A stretch of DNA of 64,000 bases from an uncultured Gemmatimonadaceae bacterium (GTDB taxonomy: Bacteria; Gemmatimonadota; Gemmatimonadetes; Gemmatimonadales; Gemmatimonadaceae), in contig CAWFQK010000006.1 of assembly GCA_963817955.1 (NCBI GenBank), forward strand, positions 1 to 64,000, given 5' to 3'. Shown here one piece after another: positions 40,076 to 48,070 of the stretch (its first letter is position 1; each line of letters opens with the position of its first letter). Under the pieces are notes generated by a model that was not told the origin of the DNA, made no database searches, and saw nothing but the letters and a program-made list of their open reading frames with translations. Position numbers and translations under genes: made by a program.

Positions 40076-41566
40076 ATGGAAAACCCGCTCCGAGCGGCGG
40101 ATGGAAGATCGGCCCGCGTAGTTCACCTGGTGGGCGAGCTGGCGCCCTTCGCGAGAAGCGGTGGGCTCGGCGAAGCCGTCAATAGCCTCGCGCGCTTTCA
40201 GGCTGCCTCGGGGTTGGCGACGTCGATTGTCATGCCGCTCTATGATCAGGCGCGCGAGAACGCGGGCGACATCGAGCCCGTCGGCCCGCCCTTCCGTGTG
40301 CAGGTGGGGAAACGTTCGGAGCGCGTGCGACTCTGGAAGTACAATCCTGCGCCCGCCGATCCACTCGCGGACATCGATGTGTATTTCATCGAGAGCGAAG
40401 ATTACTTCTCGCGCTCGTTCATCTACGGGCCTCCTGGCGGCGACTACCTGGATAACGACCGGCGCTACGCCTGCTTCGCCATGGCCGCCCTGACGTCGCT
40501 CGAGACGATCGCGGGAGATGCGCCAGTGCTCTTGCACGTTCACGACTGGCACACGGCGCTCGCCCCCGTATACCTGCGCACGACGCTGGCACACGACTCA
40601 CGCTTCGCGGGCGTGCAAGTGGTCCTCACGGTCCATAACGCCGGCTATCAGGGCCACTTCCCGTTCGATGTCATGGAGCAGCTCGGGCTACCGCCGTCAC
40701 TCTACAACTGGAGGCAGCTCGAATGGCACGGGCGGGTGAACGTGCTCAAAGGCGGGCTGGTCTTTGCCGACGCGGTCACCACCGTCAGCCCCACGCATGC
40801 GCACGAACTGCGCACTGCGGCAGGCGGCTTTGGGCTCGAGGGTGTATTCGTTGCCCTGCGCGACCGATTCGTGGGCATCACCAACGGCATCGACCAGCAG
40901 ATCTGGGATCCGGTCACCGATCCGCTCATTCCGGCCAACTACTCCCTCCATTCGCTCGCTGGAAAGCTCCAGTGCCGCGAAGACCTGCAGCGCGAAACGG
41001 GGCTTCGGCCCACCGACGAGATGCCGATCGTGGCCATGAGCGCACGGCTCGTATCGCAAAAGGGGCTCGACCTCATCCTCGGTGACGCGGGCTATTTCGC
41101 GTTCGACGCCCAGTATCTCTTCCTCGGCGCCGGCGAGCCGCGCTACGAGGACGCTTTGCACGCCATTGCCGGCCGCGCACCGAACCGCATCGTCGTAGAG
41201 ACACGATTCACCGAAGAGCGCGAACATCGTCTGCTCGCCGGTGCCGACATGTGCCTCATGCCCTCCCTGTATGAACCGTGCGGCCTCACGCAGATGCGCG
41301 CCCAACGGTACGGCACACTGCCCGTCGCGCGTCGTGTCGGTGGTCTTGCCGACACCATCGAAGATGGCGTGACCGGCTTTCTATTCGATGACTACACGCC
41401 GGCGGATTTCATGCGCGCCATGGCGCGTGCCTTCGATCAGTTCGAGCAGCCCGATGGTTGGCTGGCGATGATGCGCTCGGCGATGGCGCGCGATTTCGGT
41501 TGGGAGCAATCGGCGCAGAAGTATCTGGCGCTGTATCGCCGAGTGATGGGCTCGCCTACACTCTGA
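40076..41566 (+). CDS. glgA: glycogen synthase (GT5)
   Basis: ELAPFARSGGL, HVHDWH, TVHNAGYQG, TVSPTHA.E, NGID, RLVSQKG, PSLYEPCGLTQM, GGLADT. Confidence 0.93.
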   Translation: MENPLRAADGRSARVVHLVGELAPFARSGGLGEAVNSLARFQAASGLATSIVMPLYDQARENAGDIEPVGPPFRVQVGKRSERVRLWKYNPAPADPLADIDVYFIESEDYFSRSFIYGPPGGDYLDNDRRYACFAMAALTSLETIAGDAPVLLHVHDWHTALAPVYLRTTLAHDSRFAGVQVVLTVHNAGYQGHFPFDVMEQLGLPPSLYNWRQLEWHGRVNVLKGGLVFADAVTTVSPTHAHELRTAAGGFGLEGVFVALRDRFVGITNGIDQQIWDPVTDPLIPANYSLHSLAGKLQCREDLQRETGLRPTDEMPIVAMSARLVSQKGLDLILGDAGYFAFDAQYLFLGAGEPRYEDALHAIAGRAPNRIVVETRFTEEREHRLLAGADMCLMPSLYEPCGLTQMRAQRYGTLPVARRVGGLADTIEDGVTGFLFDDYTPADFMRAMARAFDQFEQPDGWLAMMRSAMARDFGWEQSAQKYLALYRRVMGSPTL

Positions 41567-42689
41567 CCAGGCGCCGCCGCTCGGCGAGCTCGGCGATGGC
41601 GTTGTCGCACGCATGCAGACACCGCCGCAGACCCTCGACGGTGTGATCGCCCATGTGGCCAATACGGATGGTCGTTTCGGCGAGCTGGCCGTAGCCGCCA
41701 CCCACGGTATAACCACGCGTCAGGATCTTCTCGCGCAGTTCTTTGACGGACATTCCGGCTGGCAACGAAACGGCGGTCACGGTTGGCGAGCGTGATCCTT
41801 CGGGCGCGATGATGCCGATGTCCACACCACGCCGGCGCGCGACGTCTTGGACCCAGTCAATGGTCGCGTCGCGCATGGTGAGATGGCGCTCCCACCGCCG
41901 CTCGATACCCTCGCGGCCGATGTTCCCCATCTGCGCTTCGACCGCGTACAGCAGCGAGGTCGCGGGGGTACTCGGCGTCTGGTTCTTCTGCGCGAAGGCG
42001 TCATACAACAAGACGTCGAAGTAGAATCCGCGGTTCCGTACCTTTTTCGCGCGTTCCACGTAATCCGCGGACGCCACGGCAAACGCGAGACCGGGTGGCA
42101 GCGCGAGCGCCTTCTGCGAACCGGTGAGAACGAAATCGAGCCCCCACCCATCGACGGTCAACTCCACGCCGCCGAGCGCGGAGACGCTGTCGACGATCGC
42201 GATCGCGCCATGGCGGTGGGCCACCTCGGCGACGGCAGCTACATCTGTCAGCACGCCGGTGGACGTCTCGCAATGTGCGACGGTGACCGCGACGAAATCC
42301 GTCTTGGACAGCGCGTCCTCCACGACATTCAGATCGAAGGTGCCGCCCCACGGCACAATGATTCGTTCGACGCGCCGCTCGCATGATTCGGCCACCCTGG
42401 CGAACCGCTCCGAGAAGCCGCCGTTCACCAAGGCGAGGATTGGCCCCTCGGCCGTATTGCGAATGGCCATTTCCATGAACCCGGTCGCCGAAGCCGCTCC
42501 GATGTACACGGGTCGCGCCGTGAGAAACACGTCGCGGAGTCCCGCCTCGATGCGCGCAAACATGGCCTCGAACGCTTTGCCGCGGTGTCCCATCATGGGC
42601 CGCGTCATCTGCTCGAGTATTTCCGGCCGGACCTCTGTGGGGCCCGGAATGAAGAACGTTCCGAACGGAGCGGTGGACGCGTCAGCCAT
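41556..42689 (-). CDS. class V aminotransferase, alanine-glyoxylate / serine-pyruvate type
   Basis: FIPGPTEV, HR, HCETSTG, DSVSALG, GSQKALALPPG, RIGHMG. Confidence 0.92.
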   Translation of the reverse strand: MADASTAPFGTFFIPGPTEVRPEILEQMTRPMMGHRGKAFEAMFARIEAGLRDVFLTARPVYIGAASATGFMEMAIRNTAEGPILALVNGGFSERFARVAESCERRVERIIVPWGGTFDLNVVEDALSKTDFVAVTVAHCETSTGVLTDVAAVAEVAHRHGAIAIVDSVSALGGVELTVDGWGLDFVLTGSQKALALPPGLAFAVASADYVERAKKVRNRGFYFDVLLYDAFAQKNQTPSTPATSLLYAVEAQMGNIGREGIERRWERHLTMRDATIDWVQDVARRRGVDIGIIAPEGSRSPTVTAVSLPAGMSVKELREKILTRGYTVGGGYGQLAETTIRIGHMGDHTVEGLRRCLHACDNAIAELAERRRLVRV

Positions 42690-42794
42690 ACGTCGTAATC
42701 TAGCGGCGGCCTTCACGCTCGACACGCCGCACGATAGGGACGATACTTCCCGCGGGGCGATTGACCTTTTCCCCGTAATTCTTCGGCTCACGCG

Positions 42795-43304
42795 ATGACC
42801 GTCTCGTACGAAAACAGCAAGATCATCTTCGAGGGAATCAAGGCCGCGGGCATCAAATCCGTGTCGGCCCTTCCCGAAACCTGGCTCGGCCTTCTCCTCC
42901 AGCGCGCCGAGGACGACCCCGACGTCCAACTCGTGCAAGTCGCCAGGGAGGAGGAAGCGGTCGGCATCGCCGCCGGTGCGTACTTCGCCGGCACACCGCA
43001 TGTCCTCCTCATGCAGAACCACGGCTTCTTCGGCGCGATCAACGGCATCGTCTCGCTTGCCCAGCTCTATCACATTCCGCTGTGCATGCTGATCGCGTTC
43101 CGTGGCCACTGGGGGGAACCATACCCGTGGCACACACGTGGAGGCATCGTCACGGAAGGCCTGCTCCGCGCCCTCGACATTCCCTTCGAGTACGCGCGTG
43201 ATCCGCAGAAGGTCGCCAAGCAGATTCGCGAGGCGTGGACGTTCTCGCAGAGTTCTCTCTCTCCGGTTGCGCTCCTGCTCACCCGCGACCTGATGGAGGA
43301 CTGA
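42795..43304 (+). CDS. ThDP-dependent decarboxylase alpha subunit (sulfopyruvate decarboxylase ComD-like)
   Basis: ALPETWL, VAREEEAVGIAAGAY, MQNHG, IPL.MLI..RG..GE. Confidence 0.85.
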   Translation: MTVSYENSKIIFEGIKAAGIKSVSALPETWLGLLLQRAEDDPDVQLVQVAREEEAVGIAAGAYFAGTPHVLLMQNHGFFGAINGIVSLAQLYHIPLCMLIAFRGHWGEPYPWHTRGGIVTEGLLRALDIPFEYARDPQKVAKQIREAWTFSQSSLSPVALLLTRDLMED

Positions 43305-43894
43305 TGGAACGCGCCGGCTGTCTCGAGATGATCTGCCCCGAGCTGCAGGACAAGCTCGTCGTCACGATCATGGGTGCGTGTGCCCAGGAGCTCTACAACC
43401 TCGGCCATCGCGACAACTACTTCTATCTCCAGCACGCAATGGGGCTCGCGTCGTCCATTGGGCTCGGGCTGGCAACGCACCTTCCCGACGAACGGGTGGT
43501 TGTGCTCGACGGTGACGGCTCGGTGCTGATGAACCTGGGAACTTTCGCTACACTCGCCCGCTACCGGCCCAAGAATTTGATACATGTGGTTTTCGACAAC
43601 GGAAGTCTCCTCTCTACCGGCGGCTTCGACTCGCAGACAACCTCCGGGGTGACTGATATCGCGGCGATCGCGCGCGGCGCGGGGATCGAGCACGTCGCGT
43701 CGGCTGCCACCACGGTCGAATTTGGCGAGGCGTTCATGGCGGCGCTCGAGCGCGAGGCACTGAGCGTGATCGTCGCCAGCGTCGCCGCCGTCGGCCCCGA
43801 GCACTACGGAATGGACCTGCAGTTGCCCGAGAACGCCTTCCGCTTCCGGCGTTGGATCCTCGACCGAAAGCGTTCGACGCGAGTGGTCTCTTGA
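43304..43894 (+). CDS. ThDP-dependent decarboxylase beta subunit (ComE-like)
   Basis: MGLASSIGLGLA, LDGDGSVLMNLG...FDNG ThDP motif, STGG; TGATG-coupled. Confidence 0.85.
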   Translation: MERAGCLEMICPELQDKLVVTIMGACAQELYNLGHRDNYFYLQHAMGLASSIGLGLATHLPDERVVVLDGDGSVLMNLGTFATLARYRPKNLIHVVFDNGSLLSTGGFDSQTTSGVTDIAAIARGAGIEHVASAATTVEFGEAFMAALEREALSVIVASVAAVGPEHYGMDLQLPENAFRFRRWILDRKRSTRVVS

Positions 43895-45045
43895 CCGGCG
43901 CCATCCCCGGATACGATCTCGACGCGTGGCGGCGCCAGATCCCGCTGCTCGGATGGTGCATTCCGATGAACAATTGCTCGCAGGCGCCTCAGACAGACGC
44001 CACCCGCGCGGCCGCCGAGCGGTATCTCGAGTCGTGGAACCACATCGGGATGGACTGGGATGCCTGGATGTCCGAGGTGGCGCTCGCGAAGATCGAGTTC
44101 GCGAGGCTGATCGGCGCGTCGGCGCACGACATTGCCGTATTCAGCTCCGTATCGGAGGCGACGAGCGCGGTCGCCAGCGCGATCGACTTCGGCCGCGGAC
44201 GCGCGAAGATCGTCGTGAGCGAGGCCGAATTTCCGAGCATTGCACAGGTGTGGCTCGCACAGGAACCGCGTGGCGCGCACGTATCCTGGGCGCCGGTGCG
44301 AGAGGAGATGATCGATCCGGGCGTGTACGATACGCTGATCGACGAGCGCACCGCGGTTGTCTCGGCATGCCACGGCTACTACTTGAACGGATTCATTCAG
44401 GACACGGCGCGCATCGCCGCACGGGCGCACGAAGCCGGCGCACTCTCGTTCGTGGACGTGTATCAGACGCTGGGCACGGTGCCGGTCGATGTGCGCGCCC
44501 TTGGAATTGACTTTCTCGCCTCGGGGAATCTCAAATTCCTCATGGGCATTCCCGGGATCGCCTTCCTGTACGTGCGACCGGAGATCGTCGAATCGCTACA
44601 CCCGAGCGTGACGGGCTGGTTCGGTCGCGCCAATCCATTCGCGTTCGACGCCAAGTCACTCGACTGGTCGCCGACGGCGAGCCGGTTCGACAGCGGCACA
44701 CCGCCGGTGATCAACGCATACGTGGCGCGCGCGGGAATGGAGATGATCAATGCCATCGGGCCCGCGAAGATCCGGGCCTGGCTCGAAGTTCTTGGTCGGC
44801 GCTTGATCGAGGGCGGCCGTTCGCGAGGTCTCACGCTGCACGGTTCGGACGACATCAGTCGCAAGACCGCGACGACGGCGTTCGTCGTGGGCAATTCGCA
44901 CGCGGTGGAGTCGGCGATGCGTGCGCGCGGCGTCATCCCTTCGGCGCGCGGCAGCGTGATCCGACTGGCTCCTCATTTTTATACGATGCTTGAAGATATC
45001 GATCGCGCGTTGGATGTTCTCGCCGACGTGGAACACGCCACGTGA
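43891..45045 (+). CDS. class V PLP enzyme, kynureninase-like
   Basis: EFPS, DVYQTLG, SGNLKFLMGIPGIAFLY, GWF, RFDSGTPP, IRLAPHFY; TTG start overlaps the upstream stop. Confidence 0.75.
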   Translation: MTGAIPGYDLDAWRRQIPLLGWCIPMNNCSQAPQTDATRAAAERYLESWNHIGMDWDAWMSEVALAKIEFARLIGASAHDIAVFSSVSEATSAVASAIDFGRGRAKIVVSEAEFPSIAQVWLAQEPRGAHVSWAPVREEMIDPGVYDTLIDERTAVVSACHGYYLNGFIQDTARIAARAHEAGALSFVDVYQTLGTVPVDVRALGIDFLASGNLKFLMGIPGIAFLYVRPEIVESLHPSVTGWFGRANPFAFDAKSLDWSPTASRFDSGTPPVINAYVARAGMEMINAIGPAKIRAWLEVLGRRLIEGGRSRGLTLHGSDDISRKTATTAFVVGNSHAVESAMRARGVIPSARGSVIRLAPHFYTMLEDIDRALDVLADVEHAT

Positions 45046-46379
45046 ACGAAGCTCGAGAAACGTTCGGGTCTCGCTTCGGCGGCCTGATGACGATCGTCGG
45101 CGTATCCATCGGGCTGGGCCACGTGTGGCGCTTTCCGTACATGGTCGGGAAGTTCGGCGGCGCCGCATTCGTGCTTTTCTATACGTTGGTGTCGGTCGTC
45201 ATTGGCGTGCCGGCGTTGATGGCCGAGTTTGCGCTCGGCCGCCACACGCGTCGCGGACCGGTAGGTGCCTTCCAACTCGGCGGGTTTCCGTTCGGCCGCT
45301 ACGTCGGCTGGTTCTTCTTTTTCGTCGTCACTGCGGCCACTGGTTATTACTCGGCGGTCATTGGTTGGGTGCTCTACTACGCGGTCGGTCAAGTGGCGAC
45401 GGTCGCGCACATCCCGTTCGACGCTGCGGCCATTCTGCCGCCAGATCACGGCTTTGTGCTCAAGTCGTTCCTGCTGCAGCTCGTCTTCACGGGCATTGTG
45501 CTCCTCGCCTGCGCGCTCGTGGTGCTCAAAGGCGTGCGCAAGGGGATCGAGGTCGTGAGCATGATCGTGCTGCCGGCAATGACGATCATAACCATCCTGG
45601 TCATGATCCGGTCGCTGACACTGCCCGGCGCCATGGCTGGTGTGCGCTGGTATCTGCTCGAATTCCGTTTTGCCGATTTGACTGCCAACGTGATGGCGGC
45701 GGCCATTGGCCACGCCATCTTTGCCCTGTCGCTCGGCGGCACATTCATGGTGGTGTACGGGTCGTACCTGCACGCCGATGAGCCGCTCGCGCGTCCGGCC
45801 CTCTGGACGGTGATCGGTGACACCGGCTCATCGCTGATTGCGGGACTCGCGGTGATTCCGGCGGTGTTTGCGTTCGGTCTCGAGCCGGCATCGGGACCGG
45901 GGCTCATCTTCACCACCTTGCCGAGAGTGTTCGCGGCGATGCCGGCGGGATGGCTGTTCGGTGCGCTCTTCTTCATCAGCCTGTTCGGGGCCGGTTATCT
46001 GTCCGACATTGGCGCAGTGGAAGTGCTGGTTGCGGGGCTCACCGACAACACGCGGTTCACGCGCAAGCGCGCGGTGTGGGTGATGTCTGCGGCCTGCTTC
46101 GTCCTCGCGATTCCACCGAGCATCAACAACGCGATCTTCGTTCCCTGGGACCTGACGTTTGGCTCGGGAATGCAGACGCTCGGATCGCTGCTCGCCGTGG
46201 TCACGATTGGATGGTGCTTGCACCGCGCCGCGGCGCTGAAGGAGTTGTTCGGTGCGGGCGAGAAACCCGTGCCGATGTGGATCTTCAACTGGATCCGGTT
46301 CGGCATTCCGGTGATCATCCTCGGCGTTGGTGTGTACTGGCTGCTGACGCAGGTATTCCGCACCTTTAGCGGCGTTTGA
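45042..46379 (+). CDS. neurotransmitter:sodium symporter (NSS/SNF) family transporter
   Basis: RETFGSRFG, IGLGHVWRFPY...GGAAF..Y, EFALGR, GVRKGIE, GPGLIF.TLP. Confidence 0.92.
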   Translation: MNEARETFGSRFGGLMTIVGVSIGLGHVWRFPYMVGKFGGAAFVLFYTLVSVVIGVPALMAEFALGRHTRRGPVGAFQLGGFPFGRYVGWFFFFVVTAATGYYSAVIGWVLYYAVGQVATVAHIPFDAAAILPPDHGFVLKSFLLQLVFTGIVLLACALVVLKGVRKGIEVVSMIVLPAMTIITILVMIRSLTLPGAMAGVRWYLLEFRFADLTANVMAAAIGHAIFALSLGGTFMVVYGSYLHADEPLARPALWTVIGDTGSSLIAGLAVIPAVFAFGLEPASGPGLIFTTLPRVFAAMPAGWLFGALFFISLFGAGYLSDIGAVEVLVAGLTDNTRFTRKRAVWVMSAACFVLAIPPSINNAIFVPWDLTFGSGMQTLGSLLAVVTIGWCLHRAAALKELFGAGEKPVPMWIFNWIRFGIPVIILGVGVYWLLTQVFRTFSGV

Positions 46380-46429
46380 CACACACCGCGGTCTTCTTGC
46401 GGTCAACTCTTCACTTCAGGAATTGATCA

Positions 46430-47206
46430 ATGTCGGTTCTCGCCGATCTCGTCGCCGCTCTTGATTCGGGCGAATTGAACGTTGTGGATCTCACACAGCC
46501 GCTCGGACCCGATACGCCGGTGATCGGGTTGCCACCAATCTTTGCGTCATCGCCTGGCGTCTCGATGGACGTCATCTCACGCTACGACGCGCAGGGACCG
46601 GGGTGGTACTGGAAGACCATTCGGATGGGTGAGCATACCGGAACACACTTCGACGCTCCGGTGCACTGGATCACCGGCAAAGATCTTCCCGACAATCGGT
46701 GCGACACGATTCCGGCGCGCCGCTTCGTCGGCCCCGCCTGCGTGATCGACGTGACGGCCGAGGTTGCGAAGAATGAGGATTTCTTGCTGATGCCGGAGCA
46801 CGTGACGGCATGGGAGCAGGCACACGGCCGGATTCCTCGCGGCGCATGGGTGCTGTTGCGCACCGGCTGGAGCAAGCGAACCGACCCGTCAGAGTTCCTC
46901 AACGTGAAGGCCGACGGCCCGCACAGCCCCGGATTCCACAGGAGCACGTCCGAACTGTTGGCGAGGGACCGCGACATTCTCGGTGTGGGCGTCGAGACGG
47001 TAGGCACTGACGCCGGGCAGGCAGGCACGTTCGATCCCCCGTTCCCGAATCACACGACGATGCACGGCAACGGCAAGTTCGGGTTGGCGAGCCTGTGCAA
47101 CCTCGACCGACTCCCAGCGACCGGCGCGGTGGTGATTGCGGCACCGCTCAAGCTCGTACAGGGAAGCGGCAGTCCGCTACGTGTGCTGGCCCTTGCGCCG
47201 GTGTAG
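46430..47206 (+). CDS. cyclase-family metallohydrolase (isatin hydrolase / kynurenine formamidase-like)
   Basis: EHTGTHFDAPVHWITG metal motif, GPHSPG, GTDAGQA, GLASL.NLD.LP, APLK...GSGSP.R. Confidence 0.9.
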   Translation: MSVLADLVAALDSGELNVVDLTQPLGPDTPVIGLPPIFASSPGVSMDVISRYDAQGPGWYWKTIRMGEHTGTHFDAPVHWITGKDLPDNRCDTIPARRFVGPACVIDVTAEVAKNEDFLLMPEHVTAWEQAHGRIPRGAWVLLRTGWSKRTDPSEFLNVKADGPHSPGFHRSTSELLARDRDILGVGVETVGTDAGQAGTFDPPFPNHTTMHGNGKFGLASLCNLDRLPATGAVVIAAPLKLVQGSGSPLRVLALAPV

Positions 47207-47343: not shown

Positions 47344-47952
47344 TCAGCGTGGTGGTGGCTTCAGGCCGGCTTTCACCGAGTCCGCTGCGGCGCGATTGCC
47401 CTTGCCCTTGTTGATGCGATGCTCGGCGCTTTCCCGTACCCACCCGGCGACGCCGCGCAGACCTCCGAATTGCTTCGACGATATCACAGCTCCGGAATTG
47501 GCGTCAACGATCACTTTCGTGTGCGTCTTCATCTTGTTGGGTATCACGTCGATTGCGTACTCCACTATGCCGTTGTCGTTGTTCATCTCACCCGATCCCA
47601 CCTGGCCTGGTACGGCACAGAGCGCGAGCGCTTTCGCGGAGTCTGGAGAGATCATTCCCGAGCCCGGCACGTAGAGATCAGTCTTGATGGCGACACGGCG
47701 GACTTCCAGTGTGTCGTAGCTGGGACAACTCGTGGCGCGATACCACTCGGGCAAGGGCGCGACGGTCGGTGACACGCTCATGGTCGTCGTGTCCATTGCG
47801 CTCATCGTGTCGGGTGTCGTGGGCGTCGCAGCCGGTAACTCCTTGTGGATTCGGATGCGCTGGCTGGACGCGGCCGGCTCCTGCGCCTGCACGCCGGCGG
47901 CGGCGACGAGGAGCACGGCGGCGGCGGCTGTGGTGATAACGGTAATTCTCAT
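47344..47952 (-). CDS. exported PepSY-domain protein
   Basis: Signal peptide; ISPDSAKALAL..VPGQV...E.....Y.IDV.......V.VDANSGAVI. Confidence 0.75.
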   Translation of the reverse strand: MRITVITTAAAAVLLVAAAGVQAQEPAASSQRIRIHKELPAATPTTPDTMSAMDTTTMSVSPTVAPLPEWYRATSCPSYDTLEVRRVAIKTDLYVPGSGMISPDSAKALALCAVPGQVGSGEMNNDNGIVEYAIDVIPNKMKTHTKVIVDANSGAVISSKQFGGLRGVAGWVRESAEHRINKGKGNRAAADSVKAGLKPPPR

Positions 47953-48070
47953 TGCATGCACCTCTGCTGCGGTTGCGTGGTCGGGCTCGCCGGCGTGGCG
48001 AGCCGCGCCCGGATATAAAGGCAACCTGCGTGCACGTACGGAATCGGAGCGGCGATTCCGCGCAACGACC

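Follow-up and report, generated by a model that had tools for sequence, protein, structure and literature searches.

In the genome of an uncultured soil Gemmatimonadaceae bacterium (GenBank assembly GCA_963817955.1), five plus-strand open reading frames (ORFs) fill positions 42795–47206 of a 64,000-nucleotide stretch of contig CAWFQK010000006.1 (positions 1 to 64,000 of the forward strand; hereafter, the window), as seen in the ORF list and its translations. The window has a G+C content of 64%. The genes are predicted to encode the two subunits of a split thiamine diphosphate (ThDP) decarboxylase (ThDPa and ThDPb, together ThDPab), a kynureninase-like pyridoxal phosphate (PLP) enzyme, an amino acid transporter of the NSS family, and an isatin hydrolase (IH). 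Pfam and NCBIfam scans concur with the labels given earlier by a reading of the sequence alone (hereafter, the sequence-only reading), with matches to TPP_enzyme_N, TPP_enzyme_C, Aminotran_5 plus a weak KYNU_C, SNF, and Cyclase. We propose, with somewhat better than even confidence, that the five genes form one operon serving a single pathway through isatin. The features of the locus are as follows.

42719..42747, plus strand: weak sigma-70-like promoter match, TCGACA-17-GATACT, upstream of ThDPa
42795..43304, plus strand: ThDPa, pyrimidine-binding (alpha) subunit of the predicted split ThDP 2-oxo-acid decarboxylase, 169 amino acids (PF02776)
43304..43894, plus strand: ThDPb, diphosphate-binding (beta) subunit, 196 amino acids (PF02775; GDG-X25-DN at 43511–43600)
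43891..45045, plus strand: kynureninase-like class-V PLP enzyme, 384 amino acids (PF00266; PLP lysine in NLKF, 44527–44538)
45042..46379, plus strand: predicted NSS-family Na+-coupled amino acid transporter, MhsT-like, 445 amino acids (PF00209, NF037979)
46430..47206, plus strand: predicted isatin hydrolase, IH clade of the cyclase family, 258 amino acids (solved-structure matches and motifs)

The first four genes are chained by overlapping stop and start codons, and the fifth follows after a 50-nt gap; the overlap-coupled arrangement described by the sequence-only reading holds. A check of the DNA corrects the gene starts. ThDPb begins at ATG 43304, where the sequence TGATG lets its start and the ThDPa stop share 1 nt. 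For the PLP gene the most likely start is TTG 43891, whose TTGA overlaps the ThDPb stop, and not TTG 43852, which would give 397 amino acids, because most homologs align only from about residue 15–19 of the longer ORF. The transporter starts at GTG 45042, with GTGA overlapping the PLP stop, and the hydrolase at ATG 46430, with AGGA 8 nt upstream of the ATG. Since the next gene downstream, a PepSY gene on the minus strand (47344–48024), is convergent, the operon ends at the hydrolase. A terminator scan found no convincing terminator inside the operon; the terminator-like sites are no more frequent than chance and lie within the NSS gene. The 42719..42747 site is a possible operon promoter, being a consensus match only, from a scan that does not cover Gemmatimonadota promoters and that returned two sites against 0.8 expected from shuffled sequence.

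The product of the fifth gene matches the solved isatin hydrolases with E-values of 7.8e-94 (LaIHA, 5nnb), 7.4e-87 (RsIHA, 5nmp), and 2.7e-81 (LaIHB, 4j0n), and kynurenine formamidases at 1.7e-4 or weaker; the arylformamidase model TIGR03035 gives 34 bits against a cut-off of 223. According to the accessible text of PMC6117287, isatin hydrolases are marked by HxG[T/A]HxDxPxH, a WxW/FxW aromatic pocket on a swapped hairpin, GLQC or GLAS (KynB carries I(L/I)E at this position), and a His79/His207/Asp193 proton relay (LaIHA numbering). The metal-site (Mn-site) motif is present as HTGTHFDAPVH at residues 69–79, the pocket as WYW at residues 59–61, in the same numbering as Trp59/Trp61 of LaIHA, and the GLAS of LaIHB type at residues 218–221; H79, H208, and D194 align to the relay residues, with TDAGQ at 193–197. 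The strings HFDAPVHWITG, GPHSPG, and GTDAGQA, whose pattern had led the sequence-only reading to suspect an isatin hydrolase, all occur in the translation. Judged by sequence, the assignment of this cyclase-family gene to isatin hydrolase (predicted reaction, isatin to isatinate) is secure.

The pyrimidine-binding and diphosphate-binding domains of the ThDP enzyme lie on two overlapping genes, with GDG-X25-DN in the second, a split-subunit architecture as in ComDE, the sulfopyruvate decarboxylase. ThDPa matches PF02776 at 34 bits and the ComD model TIGR03845 at 119 bits (cut-off 148); ThDPb matches PF02775 at 66.6 bits and the ComE model TIGR03846 at 140 bits (cut-off 221.5). The phosphonopyruvate decarboxylase (Ppd) model TIGR03297 gives 85 bits and, on ThDPb, 134 bits, against a cut-off of 312. 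The nearest solved chains are RhiE (9iz3_A, E-value 4.9e-14) for ThDPa, in which the R-E of the cofactor-activating motif is conserved at residues 51–52, and RhiF (9iz3_B, E-value 1.8e-25) for ThDPb; RhiEF is described as a split phosphonopyruvate decarboxylase in the accessible part of PMC12141560. Orthologs of ThDPa in 54 related loci are 53–93% identical. The phylogeny against ComDE and Ppd that the sequence-only reading had suggested was built from concatenated subunits (29 rows, with references from annotated plasmid loci). In it the cluster enzymes form one clade (support 100/99), composed of lineage A (99/98) and lineage B+C (99/98), apart from two bacterial ComDE of DHPS-type clusters, three AepY/Ppd encoded beside phosphoenolpyruvate (PEP) mutase, and one unnamed split clade found beside aldehyde dehydrogenases. 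Neither PEP mutase (best TIGR02320 match 20 bits, cut-off 320) nor Xsc (best match 212 bits, cut-off 676) was found in the genome, which is 94% complete. Because the scores fall below cut-off, the clade is separate, and PEP mutase and Xsc were not found, the pair is by these sequence criteria neither ComDE nor Ppd, in line with the new role that the sequence-only reading gave to the ComDE fold, and is a clade of its own within the ComDE/Ppd superfamily.

Other split ThDP enzymes also exist. The same genome carries a second, very divergent pair (contig C4:1020028–1023313, locus L027) with about 40% identity to ThDPb, PRK06163 as the closest model, and a position directly after an S9-type peptidase gene; in relatives, this paralog lies 25–40 kb from the PLP-first form of the cluster (order B, below). 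A further split ThDP enzyme is represented by the PDB entries 9U8Q/9U8R/9U8S. Plasmids of Sphingobium, Burkholderia, Deinococcus, and Salinigranum (L040, L041, L042, L138) hold a separate clade of split ThDP enzymes near aldehyde dehydrogenase, MmgE/PrpD, and CoA-transferase genes, one of them misannotated as an aldehyde dehydrogenase.

The five-gene set recurs in related genomes. Scanning species-representative genomes with an alignment of the PLP enzyme yielded 80 loci, 74 in metagenome-assembled genomes of Gemmatimonadota or unnamed bacteria and six in Actinomycetota/Thermoleophilia. All five genes stand together in 46 of the 80, in the order ThDPa-ThDPb-PLP-NSS-IH (order A; 19 loci), PLP-NSS-ThDPa-ThDPb-IH (order B; 24), or with the two halves divergent (order C; 3), and ThDPa-ThDPb-IH is contiguous in orders B and C. 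With this degree of recurrence the arrangement is not due to chance, and the genes do co-occur elsewhere, a point on which the sequence-only reading had made itself depend. A further 28 loci are partial, mostly ended by a contig edge. Three loci (L052, L094, and probably L054; type D) have PLP-NSS-IH with no ThDP gene in the locus, and in two of these three genomes a ThDPb ortholog lies on another contig. Within the genus of the window genome, a ThDPb ortholog (at least 53% identity) is present in 19 of 24 other genomes; of the 16 ortholog regions examined, 14 have the full set of five (in one of them the contig ends within the hydrolase) and two are truncated. When orders A and B are compared, identity is only 53–58% for the ThDP subunits but 66–86% for the PLP enzyme, transporter, and hydrolase. 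Order-A PLP enzymes nest inside order B in the PLP tree and the ThDP identity is low, so that, on this sequence evidence, the order-A operon seems to have taken up another ThDP lineage.

One set of 301 Gemmatimonadota genomes was searched with the hydrolase, ThDPb, and the PLP enzyme (hydrolase orthologs at 57% identity or more; PLP orthologs at E-values of 1e-80 or less); these genomes are relatives, and the counts are a pattern, not a statistical test. The hydrolase occurs in 35 and ThDPb in 31, with both in 29, the hydrolase alone in six, and ThDPb alone in two. Where both are present they are directly adjacent (13 genomes), within about 6 kb (5), or unlinked (11), and all 11 unlinked cases belong to one genus, g79. 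A PLP ortholog was found in 19 of the 301, of which 15 have both hydrolase and ThDPb; 14 genomes have the hydrolase and ThDPab with no PLP ortholog.

In g79 (L142, L144, L151, L156) the hydrolase lies between an SSF sodium:solute symporter (PutP/PanF-like) and a conserved 271-amino acid protein with no Pfam match, and ThDPab between an Amidohydro_1 gene and nitrile hydratase genes. Elsewhere, genes of the set appear broken: in L025 (genome G019) the PLP enzyme, ThDPb, and hydrolase each match in two pieces or in part, and in L157 (genome G163) the hydrolase spans two frames, which could be cluster decay or assembly error. DUF7790, a 346-amino acid protein, an APC permease, and an Amidohydro_2 gene were considered as additional members and set aside as local neighbors, found upstream in 4–11 type-B loci; in the window genome the last three are on another contig and DUF7790 was not found.

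The hydrolase also keeps company with other ThDP enzymes. Of the six hydrolase-only genomes, three (G311, G097, and G120; loci L150, L149, and L154) have the hydrolase gene next to an alpha/beta pair resembling indolepyruvate:ferredoxin oxidoreductase (IOR), with the alpha subunit at 286–291 bits to TIGR03336 (cut-off 651) and the beta subunit at 688 bits to NF006179 (cut-off 348). A salicylyl-CoA 5-hydroxylase/oxidoreductase gene is next in G311 and G120 (NF006101, 1293 bits, cut-off 1078), and in G097 the contig runs out not far beyond the beta subunit. Two of the three, G311 and G097, also have a cupin and a more distant class-V enzyme (38–41% identity), and G311 has an APC permease as well, so a class-V enzyme is again paired with an amino acid permease in a hydrolase-adjacent cluster. 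Plasmid AP022309.1 of Burkholderia sp. SFA1 (L153) has genes for IOR alpha/beta, a thioesterase, the hydroxylase, gentisate dioxygenases, MarR, and the hydrolase, at 56–69% identity to G311. From its gene content this cluster looks like a route from isatinate through an aryl-CoA to gentisate. As far as the accessible text of PMC9613470 goes, the iad loci of Variovorax and Bradyrhizobium contain IOR-like IadA/IadB, and metabolomics there follows the conversion of indole-3-acetic acid (IAA) into anthranilate by way of isatin and isatinic acid. By analogy, oxidation of isatinate to 2-aminobenzoyl-CoA would there correspond to the non-oxidative decarboxylation that we propose.

Fusion proteins extend this picture. 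Among the best 120 of 286 hydrolase-matching proteins longer than 452 amino acids, 90 join the hydrolase to an HpcH/HpaI aldolase, 11 to a dienelactone hydrolase plus an ABC domain, six to a class-V PLP enzyme (about 660 amino acids), four to a ThDP enzyme, three to an SDR, and one to an AMP-binding domain; of the remaining five, one has an ABC-transporter domain only and four have no second Pfam domain. In P0232, a long-form ThDP enzyme, complete in itself, precedes the hydrolase. P0229 was discarded as a ThDP–hydrolase fusion: only 57 of its residues match ThDPb, and it is probably a gene-calling artifact. The hydrolase halves of the PLP fusions retain WAW, HSGTHFDAPHH, and GLAS. Adjacency, co-occurrence, analogous replacement, and fusions thus tie the ThDP enzyme to the hydrolase, as the idea of an isatinate decarboxylase in the sequence-only reading predicts, and that putative role for the ComDE-like pair is well supported by genomic context. 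The fusion of kynureninase-like domains to isatin hydrolase argues, in turn, for one pathway and not two.

The aldolase–hydrolase fusions (P0121–P0220, about 526 amino acids; one cluster has 162 members) bear the label kynurenine formamidase/RhmA aldolase at JGI and may release isatin by retro-aldol cleavage. Proteins of about 1006 amino acids (P0122, P0123, P0125, P0126, P0128–P0131, P0133, P0136, P0144) combine an ABC-ATPase, a dienelactone hydrolase, sometimes SnoaL, and isatin hydrolase, either as genuine fusions or because gene calls were merged.

The PLP enzyme belongs to the class-V fold (PF00266, 137 bits) with a KYNU_C match of 22.9 bits against a cut-off of 27. No equivalog model passed: the kynureninase model TIGR01814 gives 65 bits (cut-off 246) and SufS 99 bits (cut-off 475). 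An AF2 model (pLDDT 92) has as its top Foldseek matches a Thermococcus cysteine desulfurase, kynureninase 1qz9 (rmsd 2.4, TM 0.86), and SufS proteins; 1qz9 is also the best solved sequence match (E-value 6.5e-24) and the fold match of lowest rmsd. The two proteins share the PLP lysine, the aspartate, a GWFG(R/H) motif, and the carboxylate-binding arginine. The NLKF of the PLP enzyme aligns to TYKY of 1qz9, so that leucine stands where kynureninase has, before the PLP lysine, a tyrosine with a role in that enzyme; DxxQ, as in SufS, replaces the DxxH of kynureninase. A SufS/NifS cysteine desulfurase was rejected on the SufS score and on the cysteines, which occur only at residues 23, 29, and 160 of 384; with none after residue 160, the enzyme cannot be a SufS-type desulfurase. 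Names in the ESM Atlas are generic class-V ones, and the contexts of plasmid homologs (28–38% identity) gave no consistent clue.

A closer kynureninase-like paralog (143 bits, cut-off 246) lies at contig C5:74213–76707 (L123) with an APC amino acid permease directly after it, and a KynB-like gene on contig C7 scores 163 bits against 223; no tryptophan 2,3-dioxygenase was found, with no TIGR03036 match in the 94%-complete genome. The operon enzyme is therefore unlikely to be the housekeeping kynureninase. By membership criteria it is not a true kynureninase, though kynureninase-like chemistry is our best guess; we predict a C–C lyase acting on an imported amino acid.

The transporter matches PF00209 at 157.6 bits (cut-off 27) and NF037979 at 112 bits (cut-off 50), and its nearest solved chain is MhsT (4us3, E-value 7.2e-47, residues 4–429 aligned). 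MhsT carries tryptophan and other hydrophobic amino acids. In related loci the PLP gene is always followed by the NSS gene, unless the locus is cut at that point. In some type-B clusters (L021, L022, L061, L067, and others) we also saw a gene for a 540-amino acid Ser/Thr protein kinase between the two.

In the single pathway that we favor, isatin hydrolase would open isatin to isatinate (2-aminophenylglyoxylate, an aryl 2-oxo acid), which the split ThDP enzyme would decarboxylate, presumably to 2-aminobenzaldehyde, following the logic of benzoylformate decarboxylase; an unlinked dehydrogenase could then convert 2-aminobenzaldehyde to anthranilate. The upstream steps are more weakly inferred: the MhsT-like transporter may import a tryptophan-derived amino acid, whose C-beta/C-gamma bond the kynureninase-like enzyme may cut to yield isatin and alanine. 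A candidate substrate is dioxindolylalanine (3-hydroxy-oxindolylalanine), an abiotic tryptophan oxidation product from which retro-aldol cleavage would give exactly isatin. Precedent for such chemistry comes from kynureninase, which can split gamma-hydroxy amino acids in a retro-aldol reaction. In the accessible text of PMC8228365 it is listed with kynurenine, N-formylkynurenine, and oxindolylalanine among the major tryptophan oxidation products. The hydrolase has as partners at least three kynureninase-like lineages (the window type, the G311/G097 type, and a fused type that groups with kynU) and a retro-aldol aldolase; C–C cleavage of a 3-substituted 3-hydroxy-oxindole with release of isatin would fit the PLP and aldolase partners alike. 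The pathway is modular, PLP-NSS and ThDPab-hydrolase being two units that are joined here in one operon. Taken at its fullest, the proposal is a complete, undescribed route for scavenging oxidized tryptophan (MhsT-like uptake of dioxindolylalanine, a retro-aldol PLP lyase, isatin hydrolase, isatinate decarboxylase, and on to anthranilate) with parts swapped across phyla (HpaI-type aldolase or fused PLP enzyme; IOR-like or long-form ThDP enzyme); this we put forward only tentatively, as less likely true than not.

Several observations weigh against the single pathway. The PLP enzymes associated with isatin hydrolase do not form a single clade in the PLP tree. PLP-NSS stands alone in L096, L109, L116, and probably L115 (type E), and two of these PLP-NSS-only genomes are missing orthologs of both ThDPb and the hydrolase. 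In g79 (11 genomes in the set of 301) megabases separate the hydrolase from ThDPab and the search gave no PLP ortholog, so the PLP step is not obligatory for the hydrolase–ThDP pair. PLP orthologs (63% identity) in the six Actinomycetota/Thermoleophilia loci occur with an aldehyde:ferredoxin oxidoreductase, a threonine-aldolase-like enzyme, RidA, and an ABC importer, and with no hydrolase; the RidA gene hints at an elimination that releases an enamine and not at alanine release. At most 10 of the 46 full loci share any other gene, be it for an aldehyde dehydrogenase or a regulator, as judged by clustering all ORFs within 6 kb. Each ThDP–hydrolase fusion is the sole member of its cluster, and the ThDP tree was built with few reference sequences (two ComDE, three Ppd; none of them archaeal ComDE) and has several long branches.

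In the tree, the PLP genes of these Actinomycetota/Thermoleophilia loci fall within the Gemmatimonadota clade, a placement suggestive of transfer between phyla. The block in these loci (L087, L088, L090, L093, L095, L120) also has GntR, and its ABC importer is of branched-chain type. One of the genomes has two copies of the block 12 kb apart and a tryptophanase/TPL-like gene.

The strongest competitor, which we nonetheless judge unlikely, is an Ehrlich-type route in which the PLP enzyme would make a 2-oxo acid by transamination or by elimination/deamination, ThDPab would decarboxylate it to an aldehyde, and the hydrolase would be peripheral, acting on a related lactam or anilide such as a substituted isatin or N-formylkynurenine. 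It gains from the gene order of the window, where ThDPab directly precedes PLP-NSS, from the plasmid loci in which a Ppd-type decarboxylase beside a class-V transaminase is the known arrangement for 2-aminoethylphosphonate synthesis, and from the RidA gene that follows the Actinomycetota PLP ortholog; on such a route the isatinate reading can fail without an aldehyde dehydrogenase being needed. However, ThDPab goes with the hydrolase and not with the PLP enzyme, being adjacent to it in orders B and C and present with it in 14 genomes that have no PLP ortholog; in its absence the hydrolase adjoins a different ThDP enzyme, one for aryl 2-oxo acids; and none of the isatin-pocket and metal motifs is missing from the hydrolase.

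Somewhat less probable still is the arrangement in parallel that the sequence-only reading had put forward, in which the NSS protein would import kynurenine or tryptophan, the PLP enzyme would be a kynureninase yielding anthranilate and alanine, and the hydrolase and ThDP enzyme would handle free isatin, the operon being shared because both branches end at anthranilate. The closeness of 1qz9 in sequence and fold, the common GWFG and carboxylate arginine, and the fact that the PLP-NSS and ThDPab-IH modules are also found apart speak for it, but the TIGR01814 score (65 bits against 246), the leucine before the PLP lysine, and DxxQ for DxxH do not suit a kynureninase. The 143-bit paralog beside its own permease is closer to kynureninase, no tryptophan 2,3-dioxygenase was found in the genome, and fusions of kynureninase-like enzyme to isatin hydrolase are more easily explained by consecutive steps. 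The kynureninase branch of the sequence-only reading thus fared poorly, while its isatin hydrolase and its non-ComDE role for the decarboxylase stood, and the five genes do recur together.

That the database label is right, with a sulfopyruvate or phosphonopyruvate decarboxylase degrading an imported cysteate- or phosphonoalanine-like amino acid, is very improbable: although JGI calls many close ThDPb homologs 'sulfopyruvate decarboxylase subunit beta', the best NCBIfam matches are TIGR03845/TIGR03846 and TIGR03297, and bacterial ComDE serves sulfonate catabolism (Leisingera locus), every score lies below its equivalog cut-off, the tree sets the clade apart from ComDE and Ppd (100/99), no PEP mutase or Xsc was found in the genome and no sulfonate or phosphonate gene in the operon or its conserved neighbors, and the persistent partnership with isatin hydrolase would be left unexplained.

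The neighbors of the operon are glgA, a divergent class-V aminotransferase gene, the PepSY protein, and secretion genes. Neither the window ORFs nor the Pfam and NCBIfam scans revealed coenzyme M, sulfonate, or phosphonate genes near it, in line with the sequence-only reading for the first two. The divergent aminotransferase (41556–42698, minus strand) begins 97 nt from ThDPa and is of AGXT/BhcA/PhnW-AepZ type, with 181 and 170 bits, below the cut-offs. It was rejected as a sixth member: it is not beside the cluster in relatives and has only weak cross-matches to the PLP gene. Small shares of the stretch occur in four soil DNA runs, all from one study; among the runs listed for it there is none of RNA.

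The locus unites, in one operon, the ThDP–hydrolase and PLP–hydrolase pairs with a transporter. Bacteria are known to degrade indole and the plant hormone auxin by way of isatin and isatinic acid to anthranilate. In the accessible literature on isatin hydrolase and isatinate we found no enzyme assigned to the isatinate step; the accessible parts of four papers give intermediates only and no enzyme for this step (PMC8383072, PMC12538310, PMC6221969, PMC9613470). The operon offers a clonable candidate for the step after isatin hydrolase, and, if the reading is true, a third substrate class for the ComDE/Ppd fold. Proteins of this fold are routinely annotated as sulfopyruvate decarboxylase, among them thousands of soil metagenome proteins, and correcting the annotation would by itself alter how the sulfur metabolism of these genomes is read. 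The operon also suggests an uncharacterized kynureninase-like family that releases isatin from an amino acid, and, if that is so, oxidatively damaged tryptophan would be a source of nutrients or salvage for the abundant soil Gemmatimonadota.

Set beside known systems, the operon resembles the iad loci and the IH-IOR-aryl-CoA hydroxylase cluster in its predicted course through isatin and isatinic acid and in having a ThDP 2-oxo-acid enzyme in the hydrolase's cluster. In iad, however, the ThDP enzyme works oxidatively, as a CoA-forming ferredoxin oxidoreductase, and isatin arises from IAA through dioxygenases, whereas the operon described here has no oxygenase, CoA ligase, or IOR. The isatin hydrolases LaIHA and LaIHB of Labrenzia/Roseibium aggregata and RsIHA of Ralstonia solanacearum (EC 3.5.2.20; PDB 5NNA/5NNB, 4J0N/4M8D, and 5NMP) have the same length, match over the full length, and share the motifs; proteobacterial homologs sit in iad-like IAA or indole-monooxygenase clusters, unlike the present gene, with its split ThDP decarboxylase, kynureninase-like enzyme, NSS transporter, and absence of an oxygenase. 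MhsT (PDB 4US3), an NSS transporter for hydrophobic and aromatic amino acids, is the best solved match to the transporter at near full length. Kynureninase of Pseudomonas fluorescens (PDB 1QZ9) has in common with the PLP enzyme a class-V fold of closest rmsd, GWFG, the PLP lysine and aspartate, the carboxylate arginine, and a C-terminal domain whose KYNU_C match stays below its cut-off, but the PLP enzyme has Leu-Lys for Tyr-Lys and DxxQ, and branches separately from kynU. ComDE and Ppd, including RhiEF (PDB 9IZ3/9IZ4), the nearest solved structure, are of the same superfamily and share the split alpha/beta architecture and ThDP-binding motif; the substrate predicted here, in contrast to theirs, is an aromatic and not a small anionic 2-oxo acid, and the gene context is free of sulfonate and phosphonate functions. 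In the mandelate pathway, benzoylformate decarboxylase carries out the non-oxidative, ThDP-dependent decarboxylation of an arylglyoxylate to an aryl aldehyde. It is one long chain with N-terminal, middle, and C-terminal domains, whereas the enzyme of this operon is a two-gene short form (NF005485 gives only 23 bits), and yet the chemistry predicted for the ThDP pair is the same, which would make the two functional analogs.

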